From Amoebophrya sp. A120 (taxonomy: Eukaryota > Protista > Dinoflagellata): a stretch of DNA of 64,000 bases. Positions 9,046 to 52,126 of the stretch are shown here, in pieces. Numbering within the stretch: the first letter of the stretch is position 1; each line of letters opens with the position of its first letter. Where the stretch lies: the NCBI GenBank assembly GCA_905178155.1, contig CAJINV010000007.1, forward strand, positions 3,428,265 to 3,492,264, read 5' to 3'. The notes below the pieces were generated by a model. That model searched no databases. It saw nothing but the letters and a program-made list of their open reading frames with translations, and was not told where the DNA came from. The position numbers were made by a program, and so were the translations under genes.

Positions 9046-9047
9046 AG

Positions 9048-11521: not shown

Positions 11522-13599
11522 ATGTCCGGTGCAGGTCTGAATTTCCACAATGGAACCTCTCTCTCGTCCAGCTCGCACCTAGACATCGCGAGACGGTCGC
11601 TGGAAGAATTCGAGCGCGCCAATTTGATTTCTCTGGCGGGCCAGGAACTTTTAGACCACTTGCGGTCGCAAACCAAGCACGCGAAACAGGTGCCGAAGCA
11701 CCTCCGGCAGATGTACTTCCCCTCCTACGAGGTGTTCACGGAAAGATCCAGCATTACGGAGTTCTCCAAAAACCGGGTGCTGCGGTTGAAACAGGTGAAA
11801 GCGGACGTCACCGAGGAGGACCTGTATTGCGGGATCTGCAAGGTTCTGGTGGCGGAGATTCGGGACCAGCAGAAGAAGTTCGACCTGCAGCAGCAGTGCC
11901 CCTACATGGCGGAGAGACTGACTAACATGGGCGGGGGGAAAAAGAAGAAAAAGAATCACGCGTTCTCCTCCTCCGGCTCGGAGGATAACGAATCGGGCGG
12001 TGAAGGAGGGTATGCATTGCAAAAATAGCATCGTACCAATCGCAATTTTTTCCAATAGGAAAAACAAAGGCGACATTATTTGGAACGCTTAGTAGCTGAT
12101 TACAAAACGGATTCATCGTGATGCAGAAGTATTTCAGTTAGAAGTTTTACGAACTTTTACTTTAGTACGACTGCTATTTTGCAGTGGATCAGAGAAGAAA
12201 TCTAACCGAAGAAGAGAGGGAGGCGCGGAATGAGAGGAAAAAGGCGGATAACTGGTTTCAGGTACTAGGACTGGAACCGAAACGTTGCAGGTTGCATCTA
12301 TGAGTATGTTGACAAGCGACAGCTCACTTTTCGACTGTATCTTCGTTTCGAAATAAAAATCCAGGTTCGCGTCGGTAAGATGACCAAGGAAGAGTGCCAG
12401 TTTGCCGTGGAGGGAGGTAACAGCAACAAGCCCCAGTTGAAGGAAGTTGTCACCGTGCACATCTCTATCCGGGAGGAGAAAATCGACGAGCTGCTTCCCC
12501 TTCTGAACCACGGCTTCGAGCGTTGGGACCGGTCTTACGACAAGATTCTCTCCCCCGCGAAATCCTGGAAGCTAAAAGCCGACTGGGGCAGCTACATCGT
12601 CGTGGACGAGATGCACGCGGCGAAATTGGCCTCCGCCGCGGAAACGCTGAAGCAGTTCCAGGCGAAAAAAGCGACGAAGCGGTTACTGGCCGGGCTGGCA
12701 GACTCTCCGGGGGACGCGACCACCGCAGTACCGACCCCGGAAGACCACAATTTGCGCACCAGCAACACGAGCAGTGGGGGTCTATTGAGAGGAAACATTC
12801 CCCCCTCATTTTGAAAAGGTGTGTTTCCAAAAATTTGTGTTGCGGATTTGAGGTCACAGATCACGTCTGTCTTGCAAGAAGACAATGGCAGAAGCTTCCG
12901 GACCATTATGGAAGCGATTTGTCATGATGTTGGGCCTAAAGGGGGGCCGTTTGCCATGCTGAACTACTAGACCCATAGCCATACGCCGCTACCTAGCCTG
13001 GGGATCTGGCCGCAGTGCCTCTCTGCAATACAAAGCTGATTTGTGGTCACAAATTAGCATCACAGGCTCACAAATCAGATATCAGGTGGATCACAGGCTC
13101 ACAAATCAGCATCACAAATTTCCGTTTTGATATGGGGAGGGGGGATTTTTCATTTTGATAGGGTCCGACGAGTGACCACGACCGTAGAGGCGGTCGCAGA
13201 AGGCGCACGAGCGACGAACTGATCGACAACGAAGAAGGGCGGAGGGACAGCATCGGCGCCTTAACTGCGCACAGCAACGAGCACAGCCTGGCCGGGCGAG
13301 GCAGTCGTAGTGCATCAATGAATATCGGAGTCCACGGAGGTATGATGGGTAACGCGATATTAAACGTCGAAGGGCAACACAGACACCAAAATCCGAGCTC
13401 AGCATCGAATTCGCCCGATCTGGAAGATGAGGACAACGGGAGCTTCCACAGCTCACTCGACGATGATGGCCAGGAAGGCGCGGGGTGTAGTGATGAAAAC
13501 GACGAGAACTCTGACCAAGATTCAAACGCAGAGCGCGGCTCGGACAGTGAATCGGAATCGTCTTCCGATGTTGACTCGTCTTCGGACGAAGAAGAGTGA
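11522..13599 (+). CDS. Hypothetical protein (possible degenerate RRM-like segment, acidic C-terminus)
   Basis: GT-AG introns 12000-12184 and 12262-12364. Removing the 12783-13160 element plus one GGGTC copy joins ORF 12380 in frame to ORF 13318-13599 (...SSGGPTSDHDRRG...). Confidence 0.7.
12783..13160. mobile_element. Introner-like element / non-canonical intron, TSD GGGTC
   Basis: TAT...ATA ends; GGGTC at 12778-12782 and 13161-13165; imperfect TIR (TATTGAGAGGAAACATTCCCCCC vs reverse complement TATCAAAATGAAAAATCCCCCC); short CACAAATCAG-type repeats at 13048-13120; frame restored on excision. Confidence 0.8.
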
Positions 13600-15014
13600 T
13601 GAAAAGATTGACTGGGACCTGCTCCGAACATGGAACCTCGAAAAAAAATCGGAGCGCCAGAGGACATTGCATCCCGAATAACCAGTATCTATACCTTTAG
13701 GAGGACTGATCCGTGCGACTTAGCAACGGCGTCCTCAAAATGGACAAGATACTTACTACAAGAACCGGAAATGCGATGAAGGTCACATTCTTGATCTACC
13801 ACTTTTAGTCATGGCGTCATAATTTTGCAACATCAAGACTACACATAGCAGGATGATGATGGAAGTGCTGTTGTAAAAATTTGTGTTTCATAGCACGTGC
13901 ACGTCAGGTTACAGCAAGCACACCTTTCGATAGAAGGAGAAAGCAAATACAGACTGAATGGACGGGTGCCGTGACACAGACTGCAAAATGAAAAATCAAT
14001 ACATCGGCGGTTTCCACGTTCGTTCTGCCCTAGGCTAGCTGCTTTCTCAAATCGATTCTGGTATTCGATTGCCTTACGGCTAGGTTTTGCAGCACAGCTC
14101 CACTCTGTACAACTCTTGGAGGCTCACCTTTGTTACCCTGGATGAAATGTCGGGTTACAACTTCTTGACCGAGTGAACACGACATGAAGAAAAGCATTAC
14201 TGAGGAAAAAACATCAAATCGTCAAGTCGTGCCTGCCGCTCTGTCCTTGTATTCTTGAAACTTGCCACAAATGCCCTCGGTCAAATGTCGGTCAACATCA
14301 TGATCATGCTGTGGTTTTTTCGAATCAAAGTCAGTGCCTTTCATCTCCTACTGCTTCAGGGCCTCGGTACACGCTGATGTGCTCCTGAGAATGATGAAGT
14401 AGAAATACGTGAAAGTTTAGTCAACAAGTATACAAAGTCACACAACGCAGAACGATCTCGATCAGATGGCGGATGTGATTGCGAAAGCAGGTTGGTGATT
14501 ATAATTCTCAATGGACTTAAGCCCTCACGATCCTGCTCAGGCCGCACGCAATATATGTACATTCTCATACAACTACCCATGATAAGATACATAGATGATC
14601 TACCCTCTGATTCTCGAAATGATTATTCATAGTCCTCCCATGAGAACGCGTAGGCGTACCCATAGATACCACGCAAAGTGGATGCAGTAGTTGTAGCATC
14701 ATTCACCATCACCCTCGCATTGTCCATAAAGAAAAGCTATTGATTGTAATTCACTAAAGAAGTTCGTTGGAGATGTTGGTGTGCAAGTACCATTGTCATG
14801 GTGCTGTGACGAGGGAATTACTCTTCGGATCTCGGGGCGGACATGTCAAAGTAGCTCGTCGCGCACGAATTGCTTTGGTGATGATGTCGCCAAGCAGTAC
14901 CAATGGACACCAAGACCAACTACAGTCGTCTCACTAGGGTGTTGTAGCTCGCCCCAGCGACAGCACGGACCTAGTACGTCTGTATGATTTGAAAAAATAA
15001 TCCATGAACACAAG

Positions 15015-17738: not shown

Positions 17739-18282
17739 AGATTTCTGTCGACCTCCGGTAGTAGAAGCCGCGGGCCCGCCTCAATAGTAGGCAATCCACA
17801 TGATTCTCTGTGAAAAATGCACCATTATGAAGGTGAGGACCTCCTGAAATGAACGACTTTTATTAACTTTGACGCGAATGTCGTGCGGGTGCGACTTAAC
17901 TTCCACGAGCACTTACACGATGAAGTCATGCGACGCGACGGTTGCGTCGTTGCCTTCGTTCCACAGCTCAGGTGTTCAAACCAGAGTTGGCTGTGATTGT
18001 AGTTTATCCATGCTCCTGTGTAGTCCCATGAAATTGAAGATTTCACCGCCCGTGATGTTGTTTCATCTTCAGGCGCAGTTCTTCTTTTCTTCGGCACTGG
18101 ATAAAGCAGCAGGACGACGTAGTCGTGCAAACACTGGCGGTGCCACACCTGTGTAGTCTCCGCTGGAGGTTTTCTTCTTCTTGTGACATACGCCTAGCCT
18201 TCCCCCTGAGCAGCCCGAGCGACAGTAACATTCGAGCTGCACCCTCGTCTTTGAGCTTATCCCCTGTGCGAGTAAGGTAAAA

Positions 18283-19785: not shown

Positions 19786-20380
19786 TAGACTAAGTACGAG
19801 TTTGTACCTCGCTGCTGGCGGGTTCTTGTGTGTTTGTGGCAATAGGGATCCCGCCCACTCGTACGTAAAAATCGCTGTAGCCGCGTTGAAGCCGGTGCCG
19901 GCTTCGCAAAGAAATGTTGCATGGTCACTTTGTAGATGAACATAATTGGCGCACACTTGCTGTCGTGATAATCATACATAATCCTGTAAAGTGCGATGCC
20001 GTCAAATAAGAAGGCGGACTAATGTTCAACTACGTGTACGTCAGGGTTAGCAAATAAAAATTTTCAAGAGTTGTGAGTGGAAACGCGTGTTTTGATGAGG
20101 ATACATGCAAGAGAGGTGAAGATCGAGATCGTTTTTACTTCTTGGAGAGGCACGTGATCATACAAAGATCTGACTTATCTGCTTTTGACAACTGAGTTCG
20201 CAGGTCCTCACCCCCGCACTGCTACCTGTGCGATTGTGCATGTGTACTTCATGCTATTTTCATTTGTCCCGTAGCCTTGAGCTACTTACTTATTCAAGTT
20301 TTCGGCAAACAGGACATGAAAGGTTTGTTACATCTACACTCATTTCACCCGTACTTTGACCACTTTTTCGCATCCTCGCG

Positions 20381-23793: not shown

Positions 23794-26700
23794 ATGATGC
23801 AGGATCAACGGAATTTGTCACAACCAAGAAGTCGATCACGAGCAGGAGCTCGAAACCGAACGAAGGACCAGCATGTTCCACCACTTAGCGGAGATGTACC
23901 ACGTCAAGAGCATCACACGGCGGGACGACCACCACGAGAGAACCATCCACTGGACGATCCCAAGACGCGGTTCGAAATGGCTCGCTCCACACTTAATCCT
24001 TCCCCATCGACGTCCATGAAATTTCGCGGTCGCGCTCCCAGCCGGTCCCCGGGCGGCCTGATTGCAACCGGGGCGCGTTGCGGCGTGTACTTGCTGTCAG
24101 GTAGCGCTGTTCTCGTGAAAGCGCAGGGCGCGATCGATTCCGACGCAGCGCTGAGAGGAGGTGGCGAGACTGCGGATGATAGGACTGGCGGTCGCGATGT
24201 TCGCTCCTGGAGAAGTGACGAGATCGGCACGACGAGCACAACGAGGGCGGCTATGCCCACTTCATCTTTCACCGAAGATGGCGCAGCTCTCTCCCAAAAT
24301 GAACAGCTTGGAGGTGGATTGGACCGTCGTCGTGGGCAGGTTACTCGGCGGAAAAAGAAAAACCTTCGGGGCGCTGCTAAGCGAGTCGAGGAACACGACG
24401 AAAAATCAAACACCGCGGCGACGGTTCCTGCCGGATTGCTGCAGATTGGCACGAAGAAGGGGGCGGCTGTGAGAGAAAGTCAAATTTCGGACCAGTCGAG
24501 TGCACAAAATGATTTGGTGGAGGAAGCGGAAGGGGTGCCGGCGGATGGTGGCACGGCCGCAAACTCTGACGCATCTTCGAGCTCTTTCGCAGTGCGTCAT
24601 ATGGTACCTGCTCCTCGTCCTGAATCTCTTCCCCCTGTACTAGTACCAGCACGGCATGATCTCCAGCATATGGTACCTGCCCGTCAGGCATCAGAACCAG
24701 CACTAGTACCGTATTTTCGACCTCCAAGCCAACCCTTCAATTATTTGCAGAGTTCCAACAGTGGGTTAGTCGCCGCAGGACCACCAGCTCTACCACAACC
24801 AGCTCGTCCAGCTCCAGACCGTGTAATGCTTCCTGCTCCATTTCTACTTCCTACCGACGCAGCCCCGGGCGCTGCACTTGGTGCACCTCCTGCTGCGGTC
24901 GTGGTTCCACAACAGCCGCAGCAGGTTGTACAACTACAACCACTTCCTGCGGGCGCTCTTCTCGCACCTAATGGATTCGCGCCAGCGATTGCAGCAGCAC
25001 CTCCGTTTACTTTCACCGTCGATCCCGTAGACCAGTTGAAGCGGCTGATACAGGAACACTTTGAAAAGGAGATTATGCGGAAGTGGACACAGAACATCGA
25101 GAAGGAGGAACAGCAGAGGGTGCAGGAAGGAACGGACGACGAGCACGAAGATTTTACGGAGAGGCGGAGGTTCTACGAGAATAAAGTGAAACCCCATCTG
25201 TTGACTGATTTTTTTAGAAACAGTATCGTGCTTGCACAGGAAGAGCGCGATATTACCAACGGCAGGCCGTTGTATGTGACCGAGATCGGGTACGACGCCA
25301 CTAAAGATGACCAGCAACAGCAACCACGGGAACGTTTTACAATAGTGAAGGAATTGGGGCAAGGAGGTTATGGGGCTGTGTACGCCGTTCTGGGAACAAA
25401 GGCCACGGTAAGACATGACGGGACACAGACTACAGAAGCTCTGAAAGACATGGGCATTGAAAGCGGCGCCAAGGAAATCGTAAATCATCTTGTGGCAGAT
25501 TTTCTCACATCTGGCGTTTCAGAAGAAAATCAAGAAAGGGATTGTCTGCCAAAGCTCTGGAAAGTTCTCTGCTACAGCAACAAGCCAGGCAGAATCGCCT
25601 TTATGCATTACAATTATGTCTGCGTCTGGGATGATGCAAGTTGGTGATGCAGTCTTTCTGGTGTCGTCCTCGCACAACATCAATAAAAATCTGTCCTGCA
25701 CAACAAGCAGCACGATTTGCTGTCTCAATGTCACGCTAAAAGTTGTGATGTGAAGCATCATGATAGGCAACATTAAGGAGCCTCTTCAAAACCTGATATT
25801 TTGCATTGGCATGCATGGCAGACCATTTGCGTGATCAACAAAATGCATGGAGGATGACGGTAATTTTCGTACTGAGATTACACGTTGTATTTACTCCGAA
25901 AAATGCATGAATATGAAAAACACGCCCACTCGTCCAGACCCAGACATGTTGCTGGGTTATAGTCTTGGTGATGGAGCAATTTGCCGGAACAGTTGATGGC
26001 TTACTGACACAGGCTCTAGGCCAGCCGAAATGGGATGACTCTGTTGTGACAAAAATGAGCAACCGTCTCGGAAATGGGGGAGGACTCCCGATGAAGGGGT
26101 TGGCTCACATCGCGAGGTGCTTTGCGCAGTGGCACAAGCACGATTTTTTTCATGGAGACTTCCACGCTGATAATGTTGGGATGAAGCACAATGGGCAACT
26201 CATCATGCTGGACTTCGGCTACGCCCAGTAAACCACGTCAAACTTCTCGCAGAGTCTGGCATTCAATTTCTTTGTTTTGTGCCTCAGTTGCGTGATCTAC
26301 TCGTACTCGCCCACCTAGATTTTATTCTGAGCCCGCACACACCTATTGATTCTGTACTTTAAGTTCAAGTTTAACATTTTTCCTCATCTTTCCACGTCTT
26401 CACAACTTAGCATCCGGAGTAGGATGATCTGGAAGGGTTCATCTTTATTTATGTGTGTCCAAAGCGTGGCGGGCGCGGAAATTGAAGCAGAGAATCCTTG
26501 CTCCGGACTCGATGCCGCAAAAAAGGCAAAACAGAAACTAGCTGGGTAATAGAGTAAAACTAAAAGCTGCAACTGGGTCACTTGCTACTTTCCGGCTCTG
26601 CGTGCAGGACGACGAATTTTGCTGCCACAGATTCCTTTCGGGTATTGCAGACTTTCCGGACTATACGCAGATGTTTGCTATGCACATGAAGACTCTGGAG

Positions 26701-35199: not shown

Positions 35200-37091
35200 A
35201 TGAACCACTACGGACACTCTGCCAGCATGTACGGCTCCGCCGACTCCCAGCACCACTACCCGGCCAGCCACCAGATGGACCACTCCCACCTGGCCAACTT
35301 CGCGGCCGCCGCGGGCTCCGCCCCGCCGGGGTTTGCCGCTCCCGCCGTGCACGACCCCTACGCGATGGCCGCTGCGCAGCACTACGCCCAGGCTCAGATG
35401 TACAACCGCGCGTTGGCCGCTCAGCAGATGTACGGTCGCCACTCCTACCCCGGTGCCGCCGCCGCGGCTGGACACCCGCACATGCCGCTGGACCCGGCTC
35501 TGGAATCCCTGTTCGGCCTGAACGCCGGTGCAGCCGCCGCGTTCCCCGCTGGCATGCCCGCTGCCTACAACTACCCGGGTGCCGCCGCCGTGGCCCACGC
35601 CGCCGCCGGAGCTGCTGCCGCGACTTCCTCCTCCGACCCCGCCTCGCCGCCGGCCGTCCCGGCCTACGGAGCCGCCGCGAGTGCTGCCGCCGCCCGCGCG
35701 ATGGAGCTCCCGCGCCGGGAACGCTTCTTCGTGCGCCGCAACGGAGGCACCACTGAGGAGGAAGTCATCACCTCGCAGAAGTTCTTGGCCACCTTCCGCG
35801 TCGGCATCCCGCACGCCCACGAGTTCGGCGCCGCCAAGCGCATCATCGGGCCGGCCGGACGCAACATGAAACTCATCGCCAGCATGATCATGGGCGGCAA
35901 GGTGCGCCTGCGTGGCGAAGGATTCCAGGTACTAAAAAGAACAGACGTAGATCAATTGAAATTCTTGCCGTGATGCTGCGCGATTAGTAAAGTGGTAGGT
36001 CATTAATGTGACAATTGAAAATGGAGGAAGAACTGGCTCGGTGCCTCTACCTGTACGTCAAAAAGTAGAATTTATTACTTGCGTTGTCGCATCACGACAT
36101 GATTTTTCCAACGTGATTCGATGTCGAAAGTTGTGATTTTCATTTTTGCTACTGAAAACAGGACAAGGACCAGAACCACCCGCTGCAGCTGAACATCTCG
36201 TGCCCGACCAAGGAGGGATACGTGATCGCCAAGACTCTGGTTTCCAAGCTGTTGAAGCAGCTGCTGGTCGACTTCCACGAGTTCACGCAGGGAAAAGTGG
36301 TGGCCCAGATGCGCGGCAACGATCACCCGATGAACCCGGAGATCCCGCCGGGCTGGGACCGGGAGTTCATGCGCGGCTACTACTCCAACTTGGTTGACCA
36401 GGTACAATGCCATAACTACAATTCCTTGTTCTATGAGTGACAGTTGACCACATCTCGTTCAGTATCAGTGTTAAAAACATACGGTGAAAAATACGTGGTC
36501 TATTCCTCTTGACCTTCAAGCATTTTTTTTCGACTATTGGGACTCGTGGTAAAAAATCAAAATGCCAATGTTAATGAGTGCTACCTTCTTCTATCACAGG
36601 TTATCTTCGTGACCACGATTCCGCGGTCCGGGTCGGCTTCCAACCAATCTTCCAAGAAGACCAGTTCCTCCAAGGTTTCCAAGAACGGTACGTCCTCGCA
36701 ATCGGAAAAGGGCGCGTCCGACTCCACCCCCTCCACGGCTGCCGAGGCGACCCCGGCCGGGGCCAGCAACAAGCCGAAGGTGGACTACCAGAAGATCTCC
36801 ATGGTTTCTTCCGATTCGATATCCACAGAAAAAAACCCATCCCCATCCATTTTTTGCATGACAAACACATGACTTGCTACGTGTTTTGCATGACAAATTA
36901 GATGTGGATGGGTTTTTTTCTGTGCATATTCCACCCGCGCGGAAATTTCCACCTCCGCCGACGAGGAAGCGGAAACCTCCTCCACCAACACGCCCGCCGA
37001 AAAGAAGCCCTTCGCCGTCGACACCAGCTCCGGCTTCGACGACGCTGCCGCCAAAATCGAGGAGGCCGTCGCCGGACTCGTGTGCCAGTAA
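35200..37091 (+). CDS. KH-domain RNA-binding protein (STAR/SF1-like KH)
   Basis: FGAAKRIIGPAGRNMK...KVRLRGEG...PLQLNISC. GT-AG introns 35929-36161 and 36402-36599. Last exon in frame after removing 36820-36928 plus one repeat copy. Strongly C/G-ending codons. Confidence 0.88.
36820..36928. mobile_element. 109-bp introner-like element / non-canonical intron, TSD TTCGA/TTCCA
   Basis: TATCCACAGAAAAAAACCCATCC pairs with GGATGGGTTTTTTTCTGTGCATA; excision gives SDSTRAEIS...VCQ*. Confidence 0.88.
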
Positions 37092-40000
37092 GGTACTTGG
37101 TAAGAGAAAGGGAGGATCATGTTGTGCTTTTGATCAAAAATCTTGAGATTCAAAAGTAAGACAACATCAAAAGAGGTGGTCTAAAATTTGTATGAAGAAG
37201 ATTTTTTCAAACAACAATTTTTTGGTGGACAGGAGTGCCGTGGTGGCTGCTTAAGCGGATATCATCACGCACTGCAAATTTTGTATTTCGTTTTGATTCG
37301 TAAGAAAGTTAAGTTATGCTTATGTCAGAATGGTCCGAGACGAGTTTCGAGTTCTTATTTTGAAAGTTTGGTTTTCTTGTTGCGAGTGTTTCAGTTTCTA
37401 CGTATTTACAACTTCCTTTAGCAATCAGCATTCTAAATTTCTTCGACCTAAAAATCGCGGTAATCCGATACCGAGAATCGTAGATGTTGTCCGGATAAGA
37501 ATATTCTAGACAGACAAAATGGTGTGTGGGAACTGTGCGCGGAAAATACAACTAGAACTACTATTTTTAATAGTACTCCGCTAGCTATTCTGCACACGAA
37601 GCGCCTCCAAAAGGAAACTCTAGGTATCGGGCTACGTAGTGTGGGAAAGATTGAATATCGTTGCTTGGTTGAGACTCTCGTGGGATGTCCTACAGGCGGT
37701 GGAATACATGGCTATTCCCGACATACCCCCACAGATCTCACGGTCATCGATTTTTCTTCTATAGCATTATGGGTAGCTCGAAGTAGAGAAAGGGTCTAGA
37801 AAGATGGTAGAAAGACACGCCGTATTTTCACACCAGTAGAAAGATAAGTCCCCTCGTCTACCGATTCGGCATTTTTGAGAATACAGCTACGATTACAACC
37901 TTTACAAAGTCAAAGAAACATTAATTAAGAACATCTACCCCCAATCTGAAAATCAAAATATGCAAATGCATATTAGCATGTCAGTGCCACCATCGGTTGT
38001 CCGTGGATTCGAAGGTGTTTGTGCCGTCACAACGACTGGCGCACGCATCGTCGATTTTGCAGCATGAGCAAGCGCATGACATGGATTCTCACATAGCAAA
38101 AAAATTATCCCCAAAGTAAACATCCTTTACTTTCAAAATCTGTCGTGCCTGCCCCAATTTCGTCCCCGTAGCTCTGTAGACAGATTCAGAAATTTTGGGT
38201 TCTCTGCTGCAGGTTCCTCATCTTCGCCAGGTCTCAGGTTTTTGCGAATTCATTTTTTTCGTATAGAACTTGCGCTTGGAGGTTATCTTGTGGTTACCGC
38301 ATAGTAGAGACGCAAAAAATCAACGCGGACCCCTTTCACTATACCAAACCTTGGAGTCAAGCAAGAAGGTTTTTGTACTAGTCAAATAAGTTGGTCGTAG
38401 AGCACATAACTTTACAACTTCTACAAGCTATTCTGGAAAAGGAAGAAGCCACGCATTGCTCCACCGGCGGCGCGCTCTTTCCAAAACAACGCAAAAAACC
38501 AATCGAGAACTAGCTTTTTACGGTTGTAAATCAACTCTGTCCAGACTGACTCTGACGAACGTGCAATTACCTTGTTTTGCTTTTTTGACTTTTATGGAAA
38601 CCAAAAAAAAGTCCCATAGAATACGCCGTGGTGTCAGTTGTGATGAAAAAAATTTCAAAAAACACAAAAAAACTATGAACGTTTTATTCAGTACAAGAAA
38701 TTATATGTATACCATTCGTTGTGAGGAGATGAAAGTTTCTATCAGCACTACAAACAAGAGACTACGTGTGGCGATTATTACTGTAAAAAACCTTTGAGGA
38801 CCAAACCTATTCGAAGAATCAGAGAATTATGAGGCGGAAAAAACTACACATCAAACAATTTACAACAACACTTATCGGGGGAAAAGCAACACCTGTTGGA
38901 CTGTGAATATATCGGAGTAGACCTACAACACAAATATCAGCAAAATTTACAGTTTCATCGAGCTGCTCTGGAGCACAAAGTCAAAGCATCAAGTTCTATT
39001 AGTAAAAAGAGCACAGTCTTCACTGGCTCTACGTGTATGATTATGATGAGTAAAAGCGCAGGCATTTCTCGCATATCCTATGAAGAACAAGTTGCGAAGA
39101 TTGCTAGAATCGCGATTATTCAGGGCAGACCTCCGCATAAGGCAAACAACATAAGAGCATCGGCAGCACATTTCACTGTGCGGGCAGAAGCTCATGCAAA
39201 GCTAAAAGTAAAGCATTTATTCAGAAAAGAGGAGCAGAATGAAGTAGAATGCAGACTAGAATAGACATCATTCTTGGGAAACAGGGAACATTACGAAGGT
39301 TGCGCGACGCATAGTGGTCAGTTTATTCACTTTGCGTCGTGTCTCCCAAATCGAAATTTCTTTTGTGGAAATAAGTTATGGAAATCAGGCGAAATGTAGA
39401 CGAGGATTGAAAGAGGAGGTAAAGAGCCTAATTTTAGGCCAAGAAACTACTTTACGAAACGTCGAACCGTCGATTCCAATGTCGAGCCGAAGAAAGTAGT
39501 CCTGCATAAAACGAATTTCAAAATGAAACCACTATCATATGGAAAGCGTGATATTACAGCAGAAGAAGTCTTCATCGCACTACTATAACCTGTGGACGAG
39601 GAGCGAGTCAACAACGCAACTACCAACATGGAGCAAAAAATGTGATTTCACGACTAACCGAGCACTACTATGAAATAAACTCTTAACTATTTTTTGACAC
39701 TTTTTACACAACTTTAACAGCTTTTATCAATTTCTTTTCGCAGAATAACGTATTTAGCTCTCCGGAAATTTCTACTCTGTGAGCATTTGATGCCACACCA
39801 AAACTATCTTTTATCGTATTTTCTATTTCACACAACGGCCACGAATTATCTGTTGCTTCTCGGACTTGAGAAAATAACCTGCAGCATCCAGAGGAAGGGA
39901 CATTTGATTATTGCGTATTGGGACAAAAAACACTAAAAAAAGAAGCCGCGCTCATTTGCGCGTCGTACTGCTCCAGCTCGAATGCGAACTGCGGCCTGAG

Positions 40001-40939
40001 CATGAAGCATCTCGCCTCCGAATTGTTCATCAACACCACTCTCGTCGTCACTTGTTATCCCGTCGCCCTCGTGTACTTCACAGAACGATGCTGTCCTCCA
40101 GTATCGATGAAGAAACCTTTCGCATCTTCGTCTTTCTGACTGAGATTTCGTAATTGTCGTTTTGATGTCTCTGGAGAGAGAGGGAAAGACGTGTTAGAGT
40201 CATACTCGTTTCCGTCAGCAAAGAAGATGCTATAGCTTACTTTTTGGCTTCGTGATACGGCAGGAGAGAAACTTCCGAGTGGTTGTTTTTGTTGCGCATC
40301 TCGTGCACCAGCTGGTTCTTTGATTAAGGCGTTGAGGAGCAGGATTGCGAGCGTTGTCGGGACCTCATCAGGGTGAACTACAGGGGCAGTGGAAAAGCAA
40401 AATCAATTGAAATGGAAATCAAATCAAAACAAAAAATAGTTTTGTCGACGAAGTGTCTTCTAGATTTGGTAGATCAAGATCTACGAAACTTCTAGTACTC
40501 TCTGCAATTATTTTACAAATTTTGATTTTCAAGGCCAAAGTCGCCAACTACCTGTTTCTCGTGCTAAAAATCAATGAACTCAAATTTTTGTTGAACTAGA
40601 ACTTGCACTTGCTGTTGCTCCTGCGGACAAAGTTTTCTTGCGTATCAAGAAGAGGAGGTTTTGGTTTATTTTACAGTATACATTTTCCGCCTTACCTTCT
40701 TCGACCGCTGGCTACAAACAAGCTCCTCTGCCGCACACATTTTCCGATTTTTACCAGTTGATCTTGCATCGTCATCTGCTTGGACACGGCCGTAACGACA
40801 AGCAGTGACTACAGGATCCAGCACTACTTTCATCTTCAGCACCTCTGGACGGTTCCTGTCCTGTCCGCAGCCGCGAGGGCATCAAGACAAGTTGCGCAGT
40901 ACTGCGGCTCCAGCACGGCAAGTAGAATCCGCCAGCACC

Positions 40940-43900
40940 ATGCCAGCGGCATCCTCGTCTTCTTCCTCCGCGCTGGTGCCACCAGCAGGAGCAGGTGGGT
41001 TTGTGCCCAGATCAGTGAAAGTCAAAAGAATTGCCGCGGAGGACGATCATGAAAGTTACCTCAAAGTCGGGGACGAGATACGCTGCAAAAACCACAACGG
41101 GAAAATTTCCAAGGCCGTGGTGATCTCCGTGAACCCTCTGACAGTCGAAGTGAAAACGAACGAATCTTCGTACAATATCCTGAGTAAAAACGTACCCACA
41201 CCAGAGTCAGGATGGGGAATCTGCTAGACAAATCAGCCAGCTTTGGTTGTTTGGCATGAGAACTTTGTCCGCGTAGTGTAGTGCTGTTTGAGCTAGTTTA
41301 GCAGCATTACAGATCTAGTATCTCGTGCTGATTGGAGCATGACAAATTTCAAAACCGCACTAGAAAATGCTTCTCATGGGGCTCCGCATGAGAAACATTT
41401 GAAGCATGCAGAGTTGCATGACAACTATGGTGTGGGTACGTTTTTACTCAGGATATACAAGAAAATGTTGTTGGACGAAGATGAGGACGAGGAAGGGGAT
41501 ATCCTGAGCAAAAATGTCCCCACCCCATAGTCAAGTTGGTAAATCTGCAACACAAATCCACAAGTTTTGGGAGTTGTGCATGACAAGCTTCCATCTGCAG
41601 TGTAGTGGTGGTTAGCAAGGGAAGCCGCATGACAAAGCAACTTTCTCATCCTGTCTACAGCATGACATATGCCAAAACACGACTGGAAATGCAAATGCCT
41701 CTCATGGAGATGCGCATTACAAATGTTCCGGTCATTGTTTGCGCATTTGCTTTTGCATGACAACTCCTGGGTGTAGGGGACGTTTTTACTCAGGATAGGG
41801 AAATTTTTGAAGATGGACTTACTGGACGACGTGGGAAAAGATTCCAACTCCGACAACGACCTCCCGGGGGACGAAGGATTTTTGGAAGCGTACGGGAAAC
41901 GGAAACAGAACAACATCTTCCAACCAATCCGCGGCTCGAAGATCCTCCGCGACGTCAGTAAGCAAATGACCAAGGAGAAGTTTTTAAAGCACGCGGCGCC
42001 ACTTCAGATATCAATAAACGGGGAGGATTTTCTTGCGGACGCCAGGGAATTTAATTCCCACGAAGAAGGGAGGACGGTCGGAAATGCGGGGTGGCACGGA
42101 GACATTCCGAACAACGAGTGTAGGAAATGAGGAAAGCGGGACGACGATCGTTGGGGCAGGGTGTGGGTAAGTCAAAAGGCCTATAACGAGCACGCATTTT
42201 TGCACGGTGTCCAAAACTGCATCTAATGTAATGAGCAAACATGCAAAGTGCATTCCACAGCTTATGCCTGCTAGGCGCAAGCTCCTCAAAATAAATGCTA
42301 CGCCCTGCCTCCATGTCGTCCGCCCTTGCGCCCGTTTTCCCATCGATAACACTCGAAGTGGAAGTCGCAGGCGTGAAGATGAATGCGGCAGTAAATGTCA
42401 ACATCGTGGTGTACAAGTCGTACGAGTGGAAGATCACCCAGGTAATTACTTGACTGGCCCAGCTGGAGCGGGGCTCTAATATTACTTGATTAGTCTGCAA
42501 CTGCACCTTGTCACTCTCGCTTCCATTTCTATGCCGCCAATAATTTCGCCTCTTTGAGTGTGTCATCAAGCTGGGAGCTGCAGCCTCGATTGTTAGGTGA
42601 GGGGACGCAATTGCACCTATGCGTAGTTAGTAGTAGATGAAAATTAAAACGAACTCATACTGCAAATCCACCACAGGAATCCTGGGTCGAGTTGTTTTTG
42701 CGATCCATCCCGCGATTGAAATTCGAAAGCGGAAGCCAGGAGGGGAAGGGGCTCGTGTGGTTGGAGCCCGACTACTCGATTGTCGCCGAGGACCACAAGA
42801 AATTGGTGGAGTTGATGCGGATTCACAACGGCGGGAAAAAGTTCTGGACGGCGACGATGGTGGCAAACTTTCTCCAGGACGACGCGGTGGCAAGGATCGC
42901 GAAAGCAAACGGGAAACCCATGCCGGTACATAAAAGCTTTTTTAGTGCAAGCAAGCACTTTGTGTTTGTCACTTCCTTTTTTGTCTTTTTGATCTTCGCA
43001 TGGAATCATGCTTCCTCGGATTATTGCCGAGATTTATGAATTAGTAAGAGTGGTGAGCACAAACAGGATCATCACAACACCCATGTTATACAACTACAGC
43101 AACGGTCCCACGTCACGTCGCTGATGACGAAATGCGGAGGGGAGAAAGATGCAAAAGGCAATTGGAAGGGCGTGCGCAACACTATGCAAAGAAAAGGATA
43201 ATAGACTGCCCACGCGTGGTGCGTGCGTGGCCGAGCAGCACTGTTTTCTTGTAATTGTTGAAGCGAGTAGTTGGCGCCGCTGGCACATTCTTGTGCTTGT
43301 TCTGCAGACAATATCTTGTTCTCCTGTGTTCTTGTAAATCAATCTCAATTATGTACGCTCGGGGCGCTCCCCGGAGGTGTAGGAAATTCATCTCCTCCAG
43401 ACGAAGTCCACTCACAACCACATCACGCGTGGGCAGTTATTTTTCGCATCCATACCCGATAATGCTCCGGGAAGTTCCGGGATGCAGAAGTCCTTGTGCG
43501 AGATGCTGCTCCAGCCGCGTTTGACCGAAGCCGAGCTGCGCCGTCGCAACGAATACTGGGAATCCCTGAAGAAGGAGTTGGACGACGAGGGGCACGAGCG
43601 ATTCGGGGGCAAGTCCGTCAAGAAGACGAAGAAGTTTTACTGGTGCGCGAAAAAGCAGGAGCTGGTGGATGATCCGGAAGAGGCTGAGGAAGAAGAAGAG
43701 GAAGAGGAGGAGGTATGCTTATTGACTACGGTTTATTTTCTTCACTCAGGATTTTTCATCGGCATAACCGCCGTTAAAGTGTATGAATGTCTGTAGTGTA
43801 AGAAAGTACTTCAAATTATGCTTTTGCGTGAGCAAGTGCAAGTGCGGACTTTCGTGCTGCGTTGCAAATCTTCGATCGAAAATTACGACTAGGACGACGA

Positions 43901-44273
43901 GAAGTTGATGCTGGAGGACGAAGAAGACTCCCTGGCGGGGTTATCCCCGGGGGCGCGGTTTGATCGTCTGCAGATGCGTTCTTTGAAAGACGAGGGCTTG
44001 GACGACAAGGACGCGGCGGGAGTATTGAAGGAGTTGGAGAAGGTCAAAGCCATCCCGTCGAAGAAGGTGGAGGACAAGAAGAACAGCAAGCGACCGGCGG
44101 GGAGTAGTACGGAGGAAGAAGGAGAGGAGGAGGAAGATGCGACGGCGGCAAGCAAACCGAAAAAAATTATCAAGAACAACAGCAAAAAGGCCGCGGGCGA
44201 CAGCATACCCGAACAAAAGGTGGGCGAAAGCGATGCAGCCTACTTTGAGCGGCTGCAGAAAGCGATGATGTGA
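40940..44273 (+). CDS. Multi-exon hypothetical protein with acidic/basic C-terminus
   Basis: ATG 40940. Frame continuous after removing elements 41176-41455 and 41500-41797, a probable non-canonical intron ~42111-42346, and GT-AG introns ~42442-42677, 42926-43383 and 43713-43893. Confidence 0.7.
41176..41455. mobile_element. Introner-like element, perfect 28-bp TIR, TSD TACAA
   Basis: TATCCTGAGTAAAAACGTACCCACACCA and its exact reverse complement ending at 41455; TACAA at 41171-41175 and 41456-41460. Confidence 0.95.
41500..41797. mobile_element. Introner-like element, sister of 41176-41455, TSD GGGGA/GGGAA
   Basis: TATCCTGAGCAAAAATGTCCCC pairs with GGGGACGTTTTTACTCAGGATA; excision joins EEG to FLKMDLL in frame. 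Confidence 0.92.
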
Positions 44274-45995
44274 CTGCGAGGTGAACAACTGGAAAGGTGT
44301 GTTGTTGGATCTACGTTGTTTCTTCTGAATTTATACAATTCGTCCCTCTTATCGATGCCCGTGTTTTACCCAAGGATAAAAAATCGAAAAGTCTTGTAAT
44401 CAAATATCAAGAACAAAAGCCATTATTTCTCCCTTGGGAACAGCCTGATGCTTTTGCTTCTGCTTCACGCGGATGAACAACCAAAGTTTAGAAAAACACT
44501 GAGAACTACTGCTATTTTGATTGTCGCCAAATGGGGATGGAATCGAGGCAAAGAGCGGCACAAGCCCCCTAAACCAAACTCCCAACAGCCACATGCTGGT
44601 GAAAAGATCTCGTCACTCCAGATCTGTCCCGTTTTCATCTGAACTAAAAATTTTACGATATTCGACCAACTTGTTACACTATACAATACGACGCACGGTT
44701 ATGGTAGCAAAACTTCGTGGAAGTGTCAAACTAGAACTGAACTACTCAAGAAAGATGAGAACTTTCAATGCGAACAATTACGATTTAGATTTACTCTTGT
44801 TTCGGTCTCTAACCACAGAACTTACGTTTCAACTTCAAGTAAATTTCGTTTCCAATCAAATACAGCAGTTGCAGCTTCGAAAGGTGATGAACTTTAAAGT
44901 TAATGATTTATGTTGTGATCATGACAACCTGGAACTAGATTCGTTCCCAATTATCCCAGGCCAAAATCAAAAAGCAGTGCTGTCGACGACATGACTGACT
45001 TGTTGGTGATGTCCTCTCTCTGCTTCAAAAACCAATATTCCGATCTAGACGTGGCCGCGAGCTAAAAGAACAAGTCTGAGTCGCAAGACGCGCGAAGTAG
45101 AAAAAGCAACACATGCTTTTACAACGTGGCGCTGTCGAGCGTGGCTCTCTTGCAGTTCTCGCACTTGATGCATTTTCTACGAAGTGGAGTAAACAGCTTC
45201 ATCGGGTTTCGTTTTTTTATCGCTCCTTTGTTTACTCGCCTAGGTCTTTTTCTTTCCGTGCACAAGGATCGCCTGCATTTATCGCCAGTATTTCCACCAC
45301 CACCTTCGTTGTTTTTGTCCTCGAGTAGAATCATTCGAAATCGAAGCTAATCCTGATCGGCACGCTCTTTTTTCTTGGTCGCTATCGTCGTGTTTCGTCA
45401 TCGAATTCAAGTGGTCATTCTGAGAAAGACCACGCTCGCTCAGAAGAATTTTCTTGATAAAAACTGATCCTGCGAAAATTGATTCTTTGCAGGCACGCAT
45501 GATATGTATGTACTCTGAAAAAAGAAACCAGCATCAAAAAACAGCGGGACTGGGCACCCATTCTATCGCATGCGTTTGTAAAGCGTCCCATTCTTGGTGC
45601 GGTGGAAAATACAAACTCCGTCTCGCACAACCGGCCAACGCCAAACTAACATGTCGTCAAGCCCTCGCGGCCCTGCGCAGCCGGTGTTTAGCCGCCGTGG
45701 GGCGAGTCACCAGGTCAGCGATCCGGGTTTGCTACGAAGGGGGTTGAAAAACGTGATACAGGTCCAGCCGGAGCAATCACCAAAGTTTGGAAGCAGTGGT
45801 GCGGAGCAACAGGTCTCATCTGCTCTTTGATGGTTGTTCTGTATAATTTATCCGACGACCACTGTGCGTGCGCAGCACTCTTTAGAATTTCAAGTATGCA
45901 AGTACAAGTTAGCTGCGCATAGATCAATTTACCATTGACACCATCACCAGCAGGCAGGGGCACGCATCATAAAAAAATCAAATCAAAAACTACAG

Positions 45996-48987
45996 GATTC
46001 AGCAGGAGAACAGCTCGACCCACAGGTCAATGGCGACCCGGACGCCACCAATCCTGACGTCAACGAAGAAGACGTCCTCACACTAGACCCCGAATTGGCG
46101 AAAAAGCAGATCAAAGCGGGTTTCTCCCAACCTCCCCCGGACACGAGTTCCGTGCCACCACCGACCTCTACCGGCGCAACCCCGAGCGCGTCTTCCACCG
46201 CGGGCAAGAAAAAATCACAACCAAAGGACCCAAATGCAAGTTTCGAGCCGTCGGACAGTTTTTTGCAAGACCAGCAAGAGGAGGAAAACCGGGACAGCTA
46301 TTTGGACCGAGAATTCCTGGAATCGGCCATAAGCACCTACAATAGGCTAGCCGAGCACGCACGGAACAAGCAGCACTACAAGCTCGGGATATCGCACTTG
46401 AGGCGGGCATTGTCGCTGGAGAAATCTGGAGTAGTACCGCCAGACGACTGGCCGTTGAAGGTGCTACTGGCGAAGACACAGGTAGGGAGATGGGGAGTTG
46501 ATGATGTGTTTCTGTTTCACGACGAAGGTACTGAATGCATGAAATGTAGTCACAGGTAGTGAGTACGAAGTTTCTCAAGCATGAAACATGTGCCAGATCA
46601 CGAAGCTTGATGTTTCAGAACGAAAAATAGAAAATACGATCACCATGATGTGCAAAAGAAACCCATGTACACGTTCAGGTAAATGTCGCCACCCTACAGT
46701 ACCTTCTGAATCAGCCCCATGAGAGCTTGCTGGAAGCAGCCTTAGCACGGGACCGCAGTCTAGAATGTTTGAATTACTTGGACAGCGAAGTTTACAGTGC
46801 GAGGAAAGGCCAAGAGGTATAAAGAAATTGGTTTCTATTTCTCTTGGCTTTGCAACTGCCACTTCCTTCGGAGAGGCGCACTGGAGCTGCAGCCCTGGTT
46901 TTGGTTCATGTCCAAAATGATTTTTGGAAGTAGATGTTGTTTAAATGGTGCAAAACGAATTGGAATTCCACAGGACCCCGACCTCCTTTTTCTCCTAGAA
47001 GAAAGCGCGGTGACGTTTTGCCTCGCTCTCCACAGCGCAGCCCTGGCGATGAAGCAGCTCCCGGGCGCAGACACCGCGGGAATAACGGAAGTCGACCGGC
47101 TCGCGTGGAAGATCGGCACCAAGTACCTCGACCGCGGACATCCGTGCCTGAGCTTCATGCGCAAAGCATTCGAGACGCGAAACACGCTGCCGCCAGAGGA
47201 GACCGCGGCGTTTGTTTCGCCACAAGGGAGTAACAAAGACGGCGCGGGACCAGGGGATGGTGGAGATGAAAGTCAGAAGGACATTACGCAAGATAAGCAG
47301 GCAGCCCAGCAAGACAAGGAAAAAGTAGACCCAGACGCAGCGGCCAAACAGGACCAAGCGGACGAGAATCAGCAGGAGCAGAAAAGAAAAATGCTGATCA
47401 GCGAGCTGGAGGATTTGCAGCAGTATTTACGCGACACGGTGCTGTCGGACGAGAAGGAACTGAACAGCATCTGGGACGACATCCAGGTAGTAAAGCAGAA
47501 GGCCGTGAACTTCGAACTCAACCTCCCCGAAATCGCGACGCTCGAAGCGGAGGTGCTCCGCAGTAAGCGCCGCATGGCGCTCAGCACCGGGTCGGGCAGC
47601 ATGCTGGGGCACATCGGAAAGTCCGCCTCCTCAGCGGACCTGCAGAAGGGCAGTTCTTCGAGTTCCTTGGAAGCGAATAAAGGCGCATCCTCAGGCGGCG
47701 AGGGCGGTGCGGGGCCGGCGGTTGGAAAGAAAACAGCGGGGCAGAAAAAAAAAAGATCAAAGTCAGCAGACAGAAGTAGTGGGGGTGGCAGACTAGGCGC
47801 GTATTGTTTTTGTGTAATTGATTTGGAATAAACACAAAACTGCACGATCGTTTGGTGCATTGTGAACTGAGTCTGTTGCAGAACATCGTGCTGCAGCTCT
47901 TTATCGTGATGATGCAGTCCTCGAATTTTTTGGTTCCTCCACATTCATTAAAGAATAAAACTGAAACAGCACCACCCGCATGGATCTTCCTGAAATGCGT
48001 CGTCAGCGCGAGAACCTGAAGCACGAGAAGACAATATCGCGCCTTATCACCCGCACGGCGGACGAGCAGTATCTCTACGAGGTCCGCATGAGTTACTCCA
48101 AGGCAAAAGCGACGCCCAGCAAATCCCGCCCCCAATTGGCCGCCAGTGCACCCGGTGGGGCTGGGCCGCACGGGGGTAAGGGGGGAGCTCAGGACGCGGC
48201 GGGGAAGAAATACGATCTGAAGAAAGACGTGATAAGTCTGACCGGGATTCTAAAGCACGAACACGAGACCCTGCTGACCTGGCATCCGCAAGGGAAGGAG
48301 ATCGCTGCTAGGTATAGTAGTGCTTCGGCATTTTTTTCTCAAGTGTCGTTCTGCTGGATTGTGCTTGTGGTTTGCGTGTGAAGTGGACGAGCAGCTGTTT
48401 TCTAATGTGGAACGAGATAGAGCTCCTAAATTTTATCGAAAAAGAAAATGTGTCAAATGTCTCTCTGATCGCGACCACTACAGTCTCGATCCGAGTTACG
48501 CGGAGCGCCAAACACTGAACCGGGCATATGCGGATTATGCAAAGAAAAAAGTGTTGCAGTTACACGCATAGGTCGTTATGCAGGCCATGCATAAGCAAGA
48601 CAGAAAATAGCCTTGGTCATGCCAAAAATGCTTGTCACCCTCAATTCATACATACGTGTTTTCCCTTACATTCTCTACAGCATTTCCATTTTGAATTTTC
48701 GCTGGCATGCAGGGAAAATCTGTGTTGCTGAAGTTGCAACTACAAATGTGCAACTGTAACACTGTTTCATCGGGATACCGATAGCCTGGGTTCCCTTGCG
48801 CACAAGGGACGCACGGAGGCCATCGTGCGTGTGTCCAAGATGAAGGGTAAGGCCCACGTGCTCGCCAAACATGTAGCCGGAAGTCCGCTCCGGCGTAGAA
48901 GCGGGGCCAGTAACGCGTCCTCACCGGGCGGGGGGAAGTGATGGAATTATGGTGGCTAGTGCGAGCAATGTTCTTGTTCGAACGTAG
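45996..48987 (+). CDS. Multi-exon helical (TPR-like) hypothetical protein; 5' end and some internal exons unresolved
   Basis: Exons include 45996-46481 (TYNRLAEH...ISHLRRALSLEK), ~46974-47800, 47970-48311, 48484-48535 and 48783-48987; the last junction needs removal of 48536-48777. Confidence 0.6.
48536..48777. mobile_element. Introner-like element / non-canonical intron, TSD CGGAT/CCGAT
   Basis: TATGCAAAGAAAAAAGTGTTGCAGTTACAC vs reverse complement of the right end TATCCCGATGAAACAGTGTTACAGTTGCAC; excision gives RAYADSLGSLAHK. Confidence 0.85.
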
Positions 48988-50030
48988 GAGCAAAGCAAAA
49001 TGCAAACGACGATGTGGTCAGGGTTACGACCTCGTCTGAAAAATAAATGAAAATTAACCTCGAATTCGAAAATGTAAAATCTATACCTCATCCGTCATAC
49101 CTTTACCTTTTCAAAACAACGTAGAGAGCCTCTGAATTCTTCAGCCAAGGCAACGTTTTCACCTTATTTCATTTCAAGACAAAAGCAAAAACAGACCAGA
49201 CAACAGCAAGCAGACGTGTCTTATGTCTGGAAATCATTGACAAATCTTCCTTTTTGAAACATCCTTATAAGCAAAAGCACAAACAAGCACAAGCTCATGT
49301 AGCTGTGGATAGAAGCAAATAAGATTGAATTAGCACCAGCACTAATTGAAATTTCCTGTACACACCAGTCTCAACTTGCGAACACTTTTTGTACAATCAT
49401 CCTACTTTTCCTTCGGTATTTCATCTGCATCGCGAATTGCTGTTGCCAGTGCAACATCCAACAAGGACAGAGGTCATGCAACAACCTGCAAGGAGAAGGA
49501 CACCAGAATCGTAAGCAGAAGTACCTGACGAGAACGGAAGAGAAGTTTGGAAAGAAAGCACATCGCAATTATACGGGCGAGGCTGTCGGAAGACCGTGCC
49601 ACCGCTACAACTACTTCCACGCACCTAAGAGTCCTCCGCGTTTCTTTCTACTCGGATATTGTCACAGACGCAACTTGCAGATGAAGTCTGTAGATGTAGT
49701 GCTGCGCCAGATGAAGTTGATAGAAACAGCACCACGTCTAATATAATTTTGAGCGCTAGACCTAGAGCACTTGAGTGAAAAAAAGGAGGGACACGGAGAG
49801 ATGCGTACTATGGTTGCCGCTGATTTGCAGAGACGGCGTACTATTAAAGACAAAGACGAGGATTCACTTCGGAGGTCGACGGCGAGGTCAACAAGAGCAA
49901 GAGGCACAACTACTCCTGCTGTAGTAGGCATGATTCTCTACTGCAAGCGCGAAAGCAAAACAGCCATAATTCGAGAAAATCAAGATAAGTTGAAGTTCAA
50001 ACTATAGGACAACATCATTTAAAAATCAAA

Positions 50031-52126
50031 ATGACGGACCCCGAGCACATCTCTCCCAATGTGCTGAAAAACTACGATGTGCTTGGGAAAGTGTCCCGCG
50101 GCAATTACGGGCTCGTGTGGCGGGCGAAAGCGTTTGCGACGGGGGAAAAAAAGTACGCGATTAAGCGGGTCATTAATGCTTTCAAGAACGCCGTGGACGC
50201 GCAGAGGACGTATCGGGAGATCACACTGCTGTTGGAGCTGAACGGCCACGCGAACATCGTGGAGATTTTTGATGTCGTCAAGGTACAGAATGAATGTTAG
50301 TACAGTTTTATTGTCACTTTATGCGGCAGTCCAGTATGCCATGATGCAGGATTTTTGAAGAAGTTTTTTCCGCACATCAGCGCGATTATGATTACCAACT
50401 ACACATACTACAGGATTACTACGACTTGGACATCTACGTTGTCCTCGAATACATGCCCGCGACGCTGGCAAACATTCTGAAAAACACGCGACTGTCCGAC
50501 GTCCAGCTTTCCTTCATGATCTACCAAACCCTGCGCGCGTTGCTCTACATCCACACGGGGGGCATCGTCCATCGCGATTTGAAGCCCCAGAACATTCTGA
50601 TTAACGCGGACTGTCGCTTGAAAATCTGCGATTTTGGGTTAGCGCGAACGCTGTACGAGTCCCCGGAAGACGAGGTCACGCTGCGGCGCCAGCGGCAGGC
50701 CGCGGCGCTGAAGTCCACGCATGCGCGCCTGTCCGACGATGACAACGAAAACCAGAAGGAGCGGATGGAGCCGCAGTACCAGATTGAGGAAGAGGGGTTT
50801 TTGTCCAACTACATCGCGAGCCGGTGGTACCGGGCGCCGGAGGTGATGCTCGGGTCAACCACGTACGACTTCTCCTTCGACATGTGGGCGGCGGGGTGCG
50901 TGTTCGCGGAAATGTATCTGCCGAATCCGTTGTTCAAAGGTATTAACAGCTGATTCTCAGCCTGTTATGCGAAAATGTAAATGTTGTGACTAAGTTATGC
51001 GAGTTGATGAGAAATGATCTTAATCTATGACATTCTTCACACCCGCAGGTACCTGCATGTTCACGCAGTTGGAGGCGATTTACCTGCATCTGGGAAAACC
51101 CGACCGGTTTGACATTATGACGATGGACGCGCCGTACGCCGAGCAGATGTTCGAAGCGACCTTGGTGAACAAGAAGGAGCCCCTGTCCTCGCTGTTCCTA
51201 CCCCGCCAAGTCCCGGTTTCCAACGTGCCCAACTGCCCCACGGTGACGGAGAACCCAACCGTGGCGGAGAATCCGGAGGAGTTGTTGGATTTTCTGGAAC
51301 TGCTCCTCCTTTGGTCCCCCCCGAAGCGTTATCAAATGCAAATATGTCTGGGTCTGGAAGATTCCGAGTTTTCTCATGCAGTTTCTCCAAGCTCCACTAA
51401 GTCTGGAATGCAGGACCTAGCATCACAGGATCTGCAGCCCCTCTGTGATGCCTGTTCTGCATGAGAAATGCCCCCTCAGCATGGCCAGAAGTGGGCACCT
51501 TTTGCAAGTCACGCAACACAGATTTTTGTATGATGCGCAACATGCATCACAAGTCCCAACCTTCCAGACCCAGACATTTTTACAATCCATAAGCGTATGA
51601 CGGCGGAGGAGGCCATACGACACCCTTTCGTCTCCGCCTACCACAATCCGGATGACGAGCCGCGGTTCCGGGAGCCCCTGGAGCTGCTATCCACTGCAAA
51701 TATGTAGTCTGGGTTTGGAACCTTGTGACGCTAAAATGTGACTGGTGGGCGCACTACAATACGCAGCCAATCATGACAAATTTTTGAGCTGCTATTCTGT
51801 TTCGGTTTCGGCATGGCAAACTGCGTGTTTGCACGACAGGCAAGAGGCCCTTGTCCTGCTTATGCATCACAGATTTGCGAGTCATTCCAGACAAGCATGA
51901 CAAAGTTGCATCCACCGTATCCAGACCCAGACATATTTGCAATGCATAGCTGCCCCTCGCGGACGACTGTCTCTTCACGGTGAATGATTACCGAGACCGG
52001 ATTTACGCGGACGTGCTGCAGATTCCGCGGGCGGTGACCCGGGTTGCGGATAAGGAGGTGGAGTTGCACCAACAACGGGTGGCGGACAAGTTGTTGCAGG
52101 AGGAAGAGGAGGCGGATGAGGATTAG
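50031..52126 (+). CDS. MAP kinase, ERK7/MAPK15-like
   Basis: [52 protein letters not shown] introns 50283-50413 and 50940-51048. Two non-canonical introns whose removal gives [14 protein letters not shown]...HNPDDEP...ELPLADD...DYRDRIY. Confidence 0.92.
51330..51591. mobile_element. Introner-like element / non-canonical intron, TSD AGCGT
   Basis: TAT...ATA ends; AGCGT at 51325-51329 and 51592-51596; core ATGTCTGGGTCTGGAAG pairs perfectly with CTTCCAGACCCAGACAT. Confidence 0.93.
51688..51948. mobile_element. Introner-like element / non-canonical intron, TSD GCTGC
   Basis: TATCCACTGCAAATATGTAGTCTGGGTTTGGA pairs with TCCAGACCCAGACATATTTGCAATGCATA; GCTGC at 51683-51687 and 51949-51953. Confidence 0.93.

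Follow-up and report, generated by a model that had tools for sequence, protein, structure and literature searches.

The stretch analysed here, which we call the window, comprises 64,000 nucleotides of the dinoflagellate Amoebophrya sp. A120 (contig CAJINV010000007.1, positions 3,428,265 to 3,492,264; G+C content 51%). It contains a group of insertions that typically begin with TAT, end with ATA, carry terminal inverted repeats (TIRs) and lie between 5-bp direct repeats. Apart from one intergenic copy, they lie within genes on the forward strand. The elements, named hereafter by their first position in the window, and their host genes are as follows.

4469-10109, no strand assigned: intergenic member of 5641 bases with a perfect 36-bp TIR and a perfect 5-bp repeat.
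12011-12190, forward: decayed element TAT...ATC, repeat matching at 1/5 bases; cuts one base before and four bases after it would give 12010-12194, with GT..AG ends (from sequence and frame).
12783-13160, forward: TAT...ATA element whose 5-bp repeat is perfect; intron predicted at 12782-13164 (from sequence and frame).
25602-25961, forward: TAT...ATA element in a kinase-like gene, repeat 4/5; predicted intron 25601-25965 (from sequence and frame).
36820-36928, forward: element of 109 bases with a 4/5 repeat; the intron is 36819-36932 or is shifted right by one base; transcript joint 36818/36933.
41176-41455, forward: element with a perfect repeat; 285 bases skipped in 4/4 runs, all registers possible.
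41500-41797, forward: element with a 4/5 repeat; the intron is 41499-41801 or is shifted right by one base; joint 41498/41802 in 4/4 runs.
42121-42348, forward: decayed element TAG...ATA, repeat 0/5; intron exactly 42120-42352 (GT..AC), unambiguous joint in 4/4 runs.
43183-43454, forward: decayed element TAT...ATA, repeat 1/5; intron exactly 43182-43458 (CT..CG), unambiguous joint in 4/4 runs.
48536-48777, forward: element, repeat 4/5; 247 bases skipped, joint 48532/48780 in 4/4 runs; where the two repeat copies differ, the joined contigs have the base of the left one.
51330-51591, forward: element with a perfect repeat in a MAP-kinase-like gene; 267 bases skipped (contig joint and orthologue alignment).
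51688-51948, forward: element with a perfect repeat in the same MAP-kinase-like gene; probably skipped, to judge by the bin depth and a side piece of 91 bases, with a gap-free orthologue alignment.
23980-26230, forward: kinase-like gene with an ABC1/APH-type match in its last part and a long low-complexity N-terminus; holds element 25602.
35701-37091, forward: gene D (coding span), with two GT-AG introns and element 36820.
40940-44273, forward: gene A (coding span), with four elements and three GT-AG introns.
45651-48941, forward: gene B (coding span), with five GT-AG introns and element 48536.
50031-52126, forward: MAP-kinase-like gene, with two GT-AG introns and elements 51330 and 51688.

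A preliminary description of the window had listed eight of these insertions (12783, 25602, 36820, 41176, 41500, 48536, 51330 and 51688) as one family of non-canonical introns in six genes. All eight do begin with TAT, finish with ATA and carry TIRs. The 5-bp flanking repeats, described as general, are perfect in four (12783, 41176, 51330 and 51688) but match at only 4/5 bases in the other four (25602, 36820, 41500 and 48536). Six registers were checked for each element on the gene strand and none fits GT-AG or GC-AG, as had been claimed. Removal of the element together with five bases leaves an open frame in all six genes, all of which are on the forward strand. The suggested class, the introners reported from Amoebophrya, is borne out, since both the ends and the removal without GT-AG match published A120 introners. 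The term 'one family' holds for the ends, which are common to all, but not for the interiors, which form several clusters. Similarly, TIR positions 4-13 had been called decayed: positions 4-10 are indeed variable but positions 11-13 (AAA) are conserved.

A scan of the window with all 64 possible end triplets (TIR of at least 18/30, repeat of at least 4/5, satellite at 5900-8900 excluded) gave 8 matches for TAT, and none of the other 63 triplets exceeded 3. The eight TAT matches comprise seven of the listed elements (51688 escaped through an indel) and a likely chance pair at 10235. This pair (10235-10939, TAT...ATA with a perfect 5-bp repeat) was rejected: its inverted repeat is weak and its ends are unlike those of any family (14-15 mismatches in 26). 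Four further members were absent from the earlier list. These are the decayed elements 12011, 42121 and 43183 and the 5641-base member at 4469-10109.

The elements are absent from spliced transcripts and are removed without GT-AG. Transcript evidence was obtained from contigs of four runs, X1-X4 (two samples from one study; 15 of the 16 joint rows are listed). Contigs of all four runs join across 41176, 41500, 48536 and 51330, always skipping the element plus five bases. They also lack nine listed GT-AG introns, show zero letter differences otherwise and give little or no cover between genes. Element 36820 is skipped in an X2 contig that also drops two GT-AG introns and whose length, 3823, equals the computed spliced length of the gene D transcript. 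The same joint is present in one raw read of RNA run X8 (the raw RNA runs X8 and X9 contributed 3 and 0 reads on the window). Joints that skip element plus five bases are thus available for seven elements in all (36820, 41176, 41500, 42121, 43183, 48536 and 51330). For 51688 we infer skipping: its bin depth in X1 (16.7 versus 68.5), with the 91-base side piece, fits it. In a DNA-like run (X5) a 9656-base contig is continuous through 42121, 43183 and 48536. Read-through in frame would be possible in 7/160 elements only.

Comparison with orthologues gives the same picture for the MAP-kinase-like gene. Its exon 2 (50414-50938) is 79% identical to a protein of Amoebophrya A25, the top of 26 matches, and the spliced protein aligns without gaps at both element junctions with the A25 orthologue and two other relatives. 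As the A25 alignment is gap-free across both sites, the element and five bases are exactly what the orthologue lacks.

The position of the cuts cannot be read where the flanking repeats are perfect. At 42121 and 43183, however, the repeats have decayed and the joints are unambiguous. Both introns (42120-42352 and 43182-43458) include one base ahead of the element and four bases beyond ATA (the -1/+4 register). Of the remaining five joints, those of 36820 and 41500 allow -1/+4 or 0/+5 only, that of 48536 allows four registers and those of 41176 and 51330 allow all. Over the seven joints this amounts to two unambiguous cases (both -1/+4), two with two options, one with four and two with all, an agreement that would occur by chance with a probability of about 0.012 under uniform registers. 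At 41500 an AG directly after ATA is not used as the 3' cut. The -1/+4 cut is shown at two sites, and it is likely that the elements overall are cut at a fixed offset instead of at GT-AG. In the decayed element 12011 the frame is kept at -1/+4, where the ends happen to read GT..AG, and would be broken by a nearer CAG; judging from the sequence, this element is possibly an introner on its way to becoming an ordinary intron.

Published data bear on the register to some extent. In the annotation of Gozashti 2025 (PMC12130899), donors of the form N-T, as summed by us, make up 6681/9716 in A120 family 2 (with TA in 392), 892/1322 in family 1 and 383/540 in family 18; such counts carry aligner bias, so we regard them as weak support, which presumes that families 1, 2 and 18 are TAT-type. 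Table S4 of Farhat 2021 (PMC7789003) has T as the second base in all nine A120-specific motifs.

To obtain a broader sample, we used a pattern scan that yielded 170 loci (426,630 bases, partly overlapping) from 11 of 64 collection parts; the 80 loci listed are all contigs of record set JACKZZ01, and none of the loci overlaps the window. The choice of loci by the end of one family makes this family over-represented, and for it the TAT at one end follows in part from the selection. When an inner TIR motif served as anchor, 158 pairs resulted; 144 of them have both TAT and ATA, and 123 of these 144 have an exact 5-bp repeat. A repeat-blind scan of loci of at least 1000 bases identified 223 elements with many types of TIR. 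The 5-bp repeat is exact in 162 of them, matches at 4/5 in 31 and at 3/5 or fewer in 30, and exact repeats of 6-10 bases were found in 0/223. With nine control triplets, tested on the first 40 loci, 0/84 candidates have a 5-bp duplication. The base A occupies TIR positions 11, 12 and 13 in 79, 85 and 89% of the ends of the 223 elements, and positions 4-10 vary. Seven of the eight listed elements have matches of 67-89% in the fetched loci; for the interior of 25602 there is no match there at E 1e-8. In X5, the summed contig depth of the elements is far above that of their flanks. The elements are repeated in families over the genome, and the TAT/ATA plus 5-bp rule spans TIR types.

Some of the fetched members are longer than usual. 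Two (L009, 3001-4255, and L070, 3862-4492) have the commonest type of end, interiors that are alike by eye and what seems to be captured sequence. Two others (L033, 632-1465, and L037, 3314-3770) carry other inserts, which end in short CAT/ATG runs.

The intergenic member at 4469-10109 has a foldback-like structure, with inverted arms of approximately 1 kb composed of 108-base units and a core of 13 x 256 bases, and looks young. Since it has the same ends but is intergenic, the TAT/ATA ends are a feature of the DNA and are not bound to exons. Its end has no match in viral contigs and the whole element has none in the fetched loci. The rule is thus common to different TIR subfamilies and to an intergenic copy, which fits the single transposase chemistry proposed in the preliminary description (the transposase itself was not found).

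The orientation of the elements relative to the host gene was determined with a self-trained coding model. When the gene concerned was left out, the model gave the correct sign for 10/10 window elements (one marginally). In the loci it was confident for 182/221 elements, neighbours being concordant in 111/112 cases, and a second pass over all loci oriented 226/282. In the seven largest clusters the two orientations occur at 28:26, 12:16, 7:7, 8:6, 9:2, 5:5 and 4:4. Among the 226 oriented elements, the first intron base is G in 74, the last two are AG in 22 and both apply in 7, values near background. The first T of the element, +2 of the intron if the cut is at -1, is intact at the 5' end in 226/226, versus 220/226 for the mirror base at the other end (two-sided binomial p ~0.03); the second and third element bases show no such protection. 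In intron donors generally, no base is as constant as the +2 U.

End-to-end helices are predicted in 11/11 window elements, with 14-29 expected pairs (z-scores from 20 shuffles). The preliminary description had suggested a structure-guided splice signal independent of GT-AG. Independence from GT-AG stands, but the signal does not seem to be structural alone: at the donor end the first T is protected, and TAT:ATA pairing is not predicted in either of the elements that fix the register. A ruler measured from the closed end of the stem alone was rejected for this last reason, as 42121 and 43183 fix the register without predicted TAT:ATA pairing. In these two introns (42120-42352 and 43182-43458) the flanking repeats are at chance level (0/5 and 1/5), the interiors are unmatched in the fetched loci and the inner helix persists. 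The persistence of the helix in such old elements may reflect selection on it.

On balance we favour the view that these are A120-type introners with TAT...ATA ends and 5-bp duplications, which likely spread as non-autonomous DNA transposons and which a relaxed host spliceosome likely cuts one base ahead of TAT and four bases past ATA. A transposase acting in trans would insert the element with a 5-bp duplication. This enzyme would probably be integrase-like, encoded elsewhere and in need of TA..TA ends, because TA..TA is typical of IS3EU/GingerRoot and duplications of 4-5 bp are typical of Ginger2/TDD, although neither group fits fully. The first bases of the element would then provide an N-U-A-U intron start, resembling the G-U-A donors of the host with the first base left free. 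Pairing of the inverted repeats would bring the two ends together, and the relaxed host spliceosome would locate the 3' cut by where it lies relative to the paired end and not by AG. Since one base plus four equals the 5-bp duplication, splicing would restore the original message exactly, and since the ends mirror each other, insertion would work in either direction. These two properties together would explain how elements come to fill exons. We lean, if only slightly, towards a wider version of this scheme. In it, most non-canonical introns of this genome result from one TAT...ATA/5-bp chemistry and one -1/+4 ruler, in either orientation, with the +2 U as the sole requirement and an AG at the 3' end dispensable. 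The splice motifs of A120 would seem chaotic because a constant register falls on random target sequence, and the second step of the host spliceosome would be blind to sequence.

The host GT-AG introns (35929-51048) mostly start with GTA. Towards their 3' ends they are rich in A and C, often finishing with ACAG, and they lack a clear pyrimidine tract. The GTA start is found in 10/11 transcript-supported GT-AG introns of the window.

A number of points weigh against the favoured scheme. The RNA nature of X1-X4 is the guess of a tool, none being recorded as RNA, and they represent two samples and one study. The register is fixed by two junctions only, both in gene A, and a test of which repeat copy mutates gave small counts (17 versus 11 and 4 versus 3). 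The +2 test concerns six events, and its orientations depend on the self-trained coding model. For the pairing of TAT with ATA, the predicted value is 0.9 or above in 5/11 elements and 0.1 or below in three, among them 42121 and 43183. By eye, no transposase-like open reading frame is seen in 4469-10109 or in six elements of more than 380 bases from the loci. In the published annotation approximately 30% of donors are not N-T, and AG ends amount to 27% versus 10% in the oriented set here. In addition, Farhat 2021 (PMC7789003) describes splice sites as variable relative to the hairpin and U1 small nuclear RNA as not found in A120.

The same elements and the same -1/+4 cut could be combined with removal by something other than the U2 spliceosome: the terminal hairpin would be read by a splicing complex of another kind or by a nuclease together with a ligase, as proposed for the nonconventional introns of euglenids. 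The helices predicted in all 11 window elements, their persistence where the repeats have decayed to chance, the use of both orientations without a requirement for GT or AG and the missing U1 (PMC7789003) all agree with this. We nevertheless consider it unlikely, as the +2 U is protected, N-U-A resembles the host donors, 12011 fits the offset and GT-AG alike, and all but six of 89 spliceosomal proteins were found in Farhat 2021 (PMC7789003).

Less likely still is the absence of any fixed offset, with a cut that slides within or near the repeats and sites that agree here by chance or through old age. This is how the legend to Fig. 3 and section 11 of Farhat 2021 (PMC7789003) present the introners; the A120 rows of Gozashti 2025 (PMC12130899) mix mechanism calls and give target-site duplication (TSD) lengths of 2-6 (one of 11), and only two junctions here are exact. 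Both of these agree, however, and remove exactly the element plus five bases although no repeat enforces this length. Moreover, four leftward registers are excluded at 36820 and 41500, one of them ending in AG, and N-T donors dominate the published annotation. Finally, the idea that the genes are pseudogenes or polymorphic and that the joined contigs are DNA lacking the inserts, which the guessed RNA nature of X1-X4 might favour, is largely refuted: the joined contigs also lack GT-AG introns without other letter differences and with scant intergenic cover, the inserts are kept in DNA-like contigs and just 7/160 elements could be read in frame.

Several other features of the window can be mentioned here. 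Gene D (35574-39941) has a frame of 281 residues with a GxxG motif, which we presume resembles a KH domain, and approximately 2.85 kb of transcript beyond the stop. Element 25602 presumably lies near the kinase hinge, as judged by kinase motifs. At 29674-29996, a 63-base unit occurs five times (95% alike) in a G+C-rich stretch that is probably coding.

How do these elements compare with known systems? The TA..TA ends are shared with the integrase-like IS3EU/GingerRoot elements (PMC10045372), but the 6-bp duplication usual for that group is not seen here (exact 6-bp repeats in 0/223). Ginger2/TDD (PMC2836005) share the 4-5-bp duplication, but the Ginger ends are TGTNR and those described here TAT. 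The nonconventional introns of euglenids (PMC11282704) are likewise transposon-derived, with inverted repeats, duplications and non-GT-AG ends, and they share the end-to-end helix, here predicted in 11/11 elements. Their CAG/CTG at +4..6 and -8..-6 is, however, lacking here, and theirs leave as circles. The non-canonical introns of Fritillaria borealis (PMC13326754) are also derived from transposons and have inverted repeats, duplications and non-GT-AG ends, but favour AG-AC/AG-AT and involve the U2 spliceosome with a duplicated U2AF, whereas here the +2 U is the only base that seems constant, with no constraint on the final two. Compared with U2 spliceosomal introns in general, the GT(GC)-AG ends are missing but the near-invariant +2 U is present (in 226/226 under the -1 register).

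The closest relatives are, of course, the introners already described from the same genus, and the class of element is not new. According to Farhat 2021 (PMC7789003), the inverted repeats of A120 introners consist of TAT, seven loose bases and AAA, with direct repeats of 3-5 nt (5 bp in the legend to Fig. S19), the commonest of which lie four bases upstream and within two bases downstream of the inverted repeats. Those introners also share with ours the removal without GT-AG, the many families and a length of approximately 240-260 nt. The differences are that in Farhat 2021 borders are unknown or variable, repeat lengths vary and general mobilisation by a transposase is disputed, compared with a uniform 5 bp and resolvable cuts at -1/+4 here. 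In Gozashti 2025 (PMC12130899, supplement file 8), '5-bp TSD, TA/TA termini' is noted for family 38, so that this too is not new; such a remark on termini occurs in 1/58 A120 rows, the others having mixed TSD and splice-site calls, and in these rows and the passages covered there is neither a common rule nor an offset or a test of orientation. The literature covered, which includes few subscription papers, did not mention a fixed -1/+4 offset, independence from orientation or a protected +2 U.

Our results thus suggest a testable -1/+4 splice rule, resting on few junctions, as the addition to this body of work. Amoebophrya removes tens of thousands of introns without GT-AG, and how it does so has been an open problem since 2021, one reason being the belief that the borders vary. 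With a fixed -1/+4 offset and a protected +2 U, the question becomes more specific: which bases and helix define the ruler, and is the intron released as a lariat? If the rule is true, gene models in Amoebophrya genomes could be corrected, and the length of a transposon duplication could match the geometry of splicing and make insertion into exons free of cost. Strain A25 may have a similar donor start: in Table S4 of Farhat 2021 (PMC7789003) the nine A25-specific motifs all start with TT and the A25 repeats with TTA, so that A25 introns would share the +2 U and +3 A of A120.

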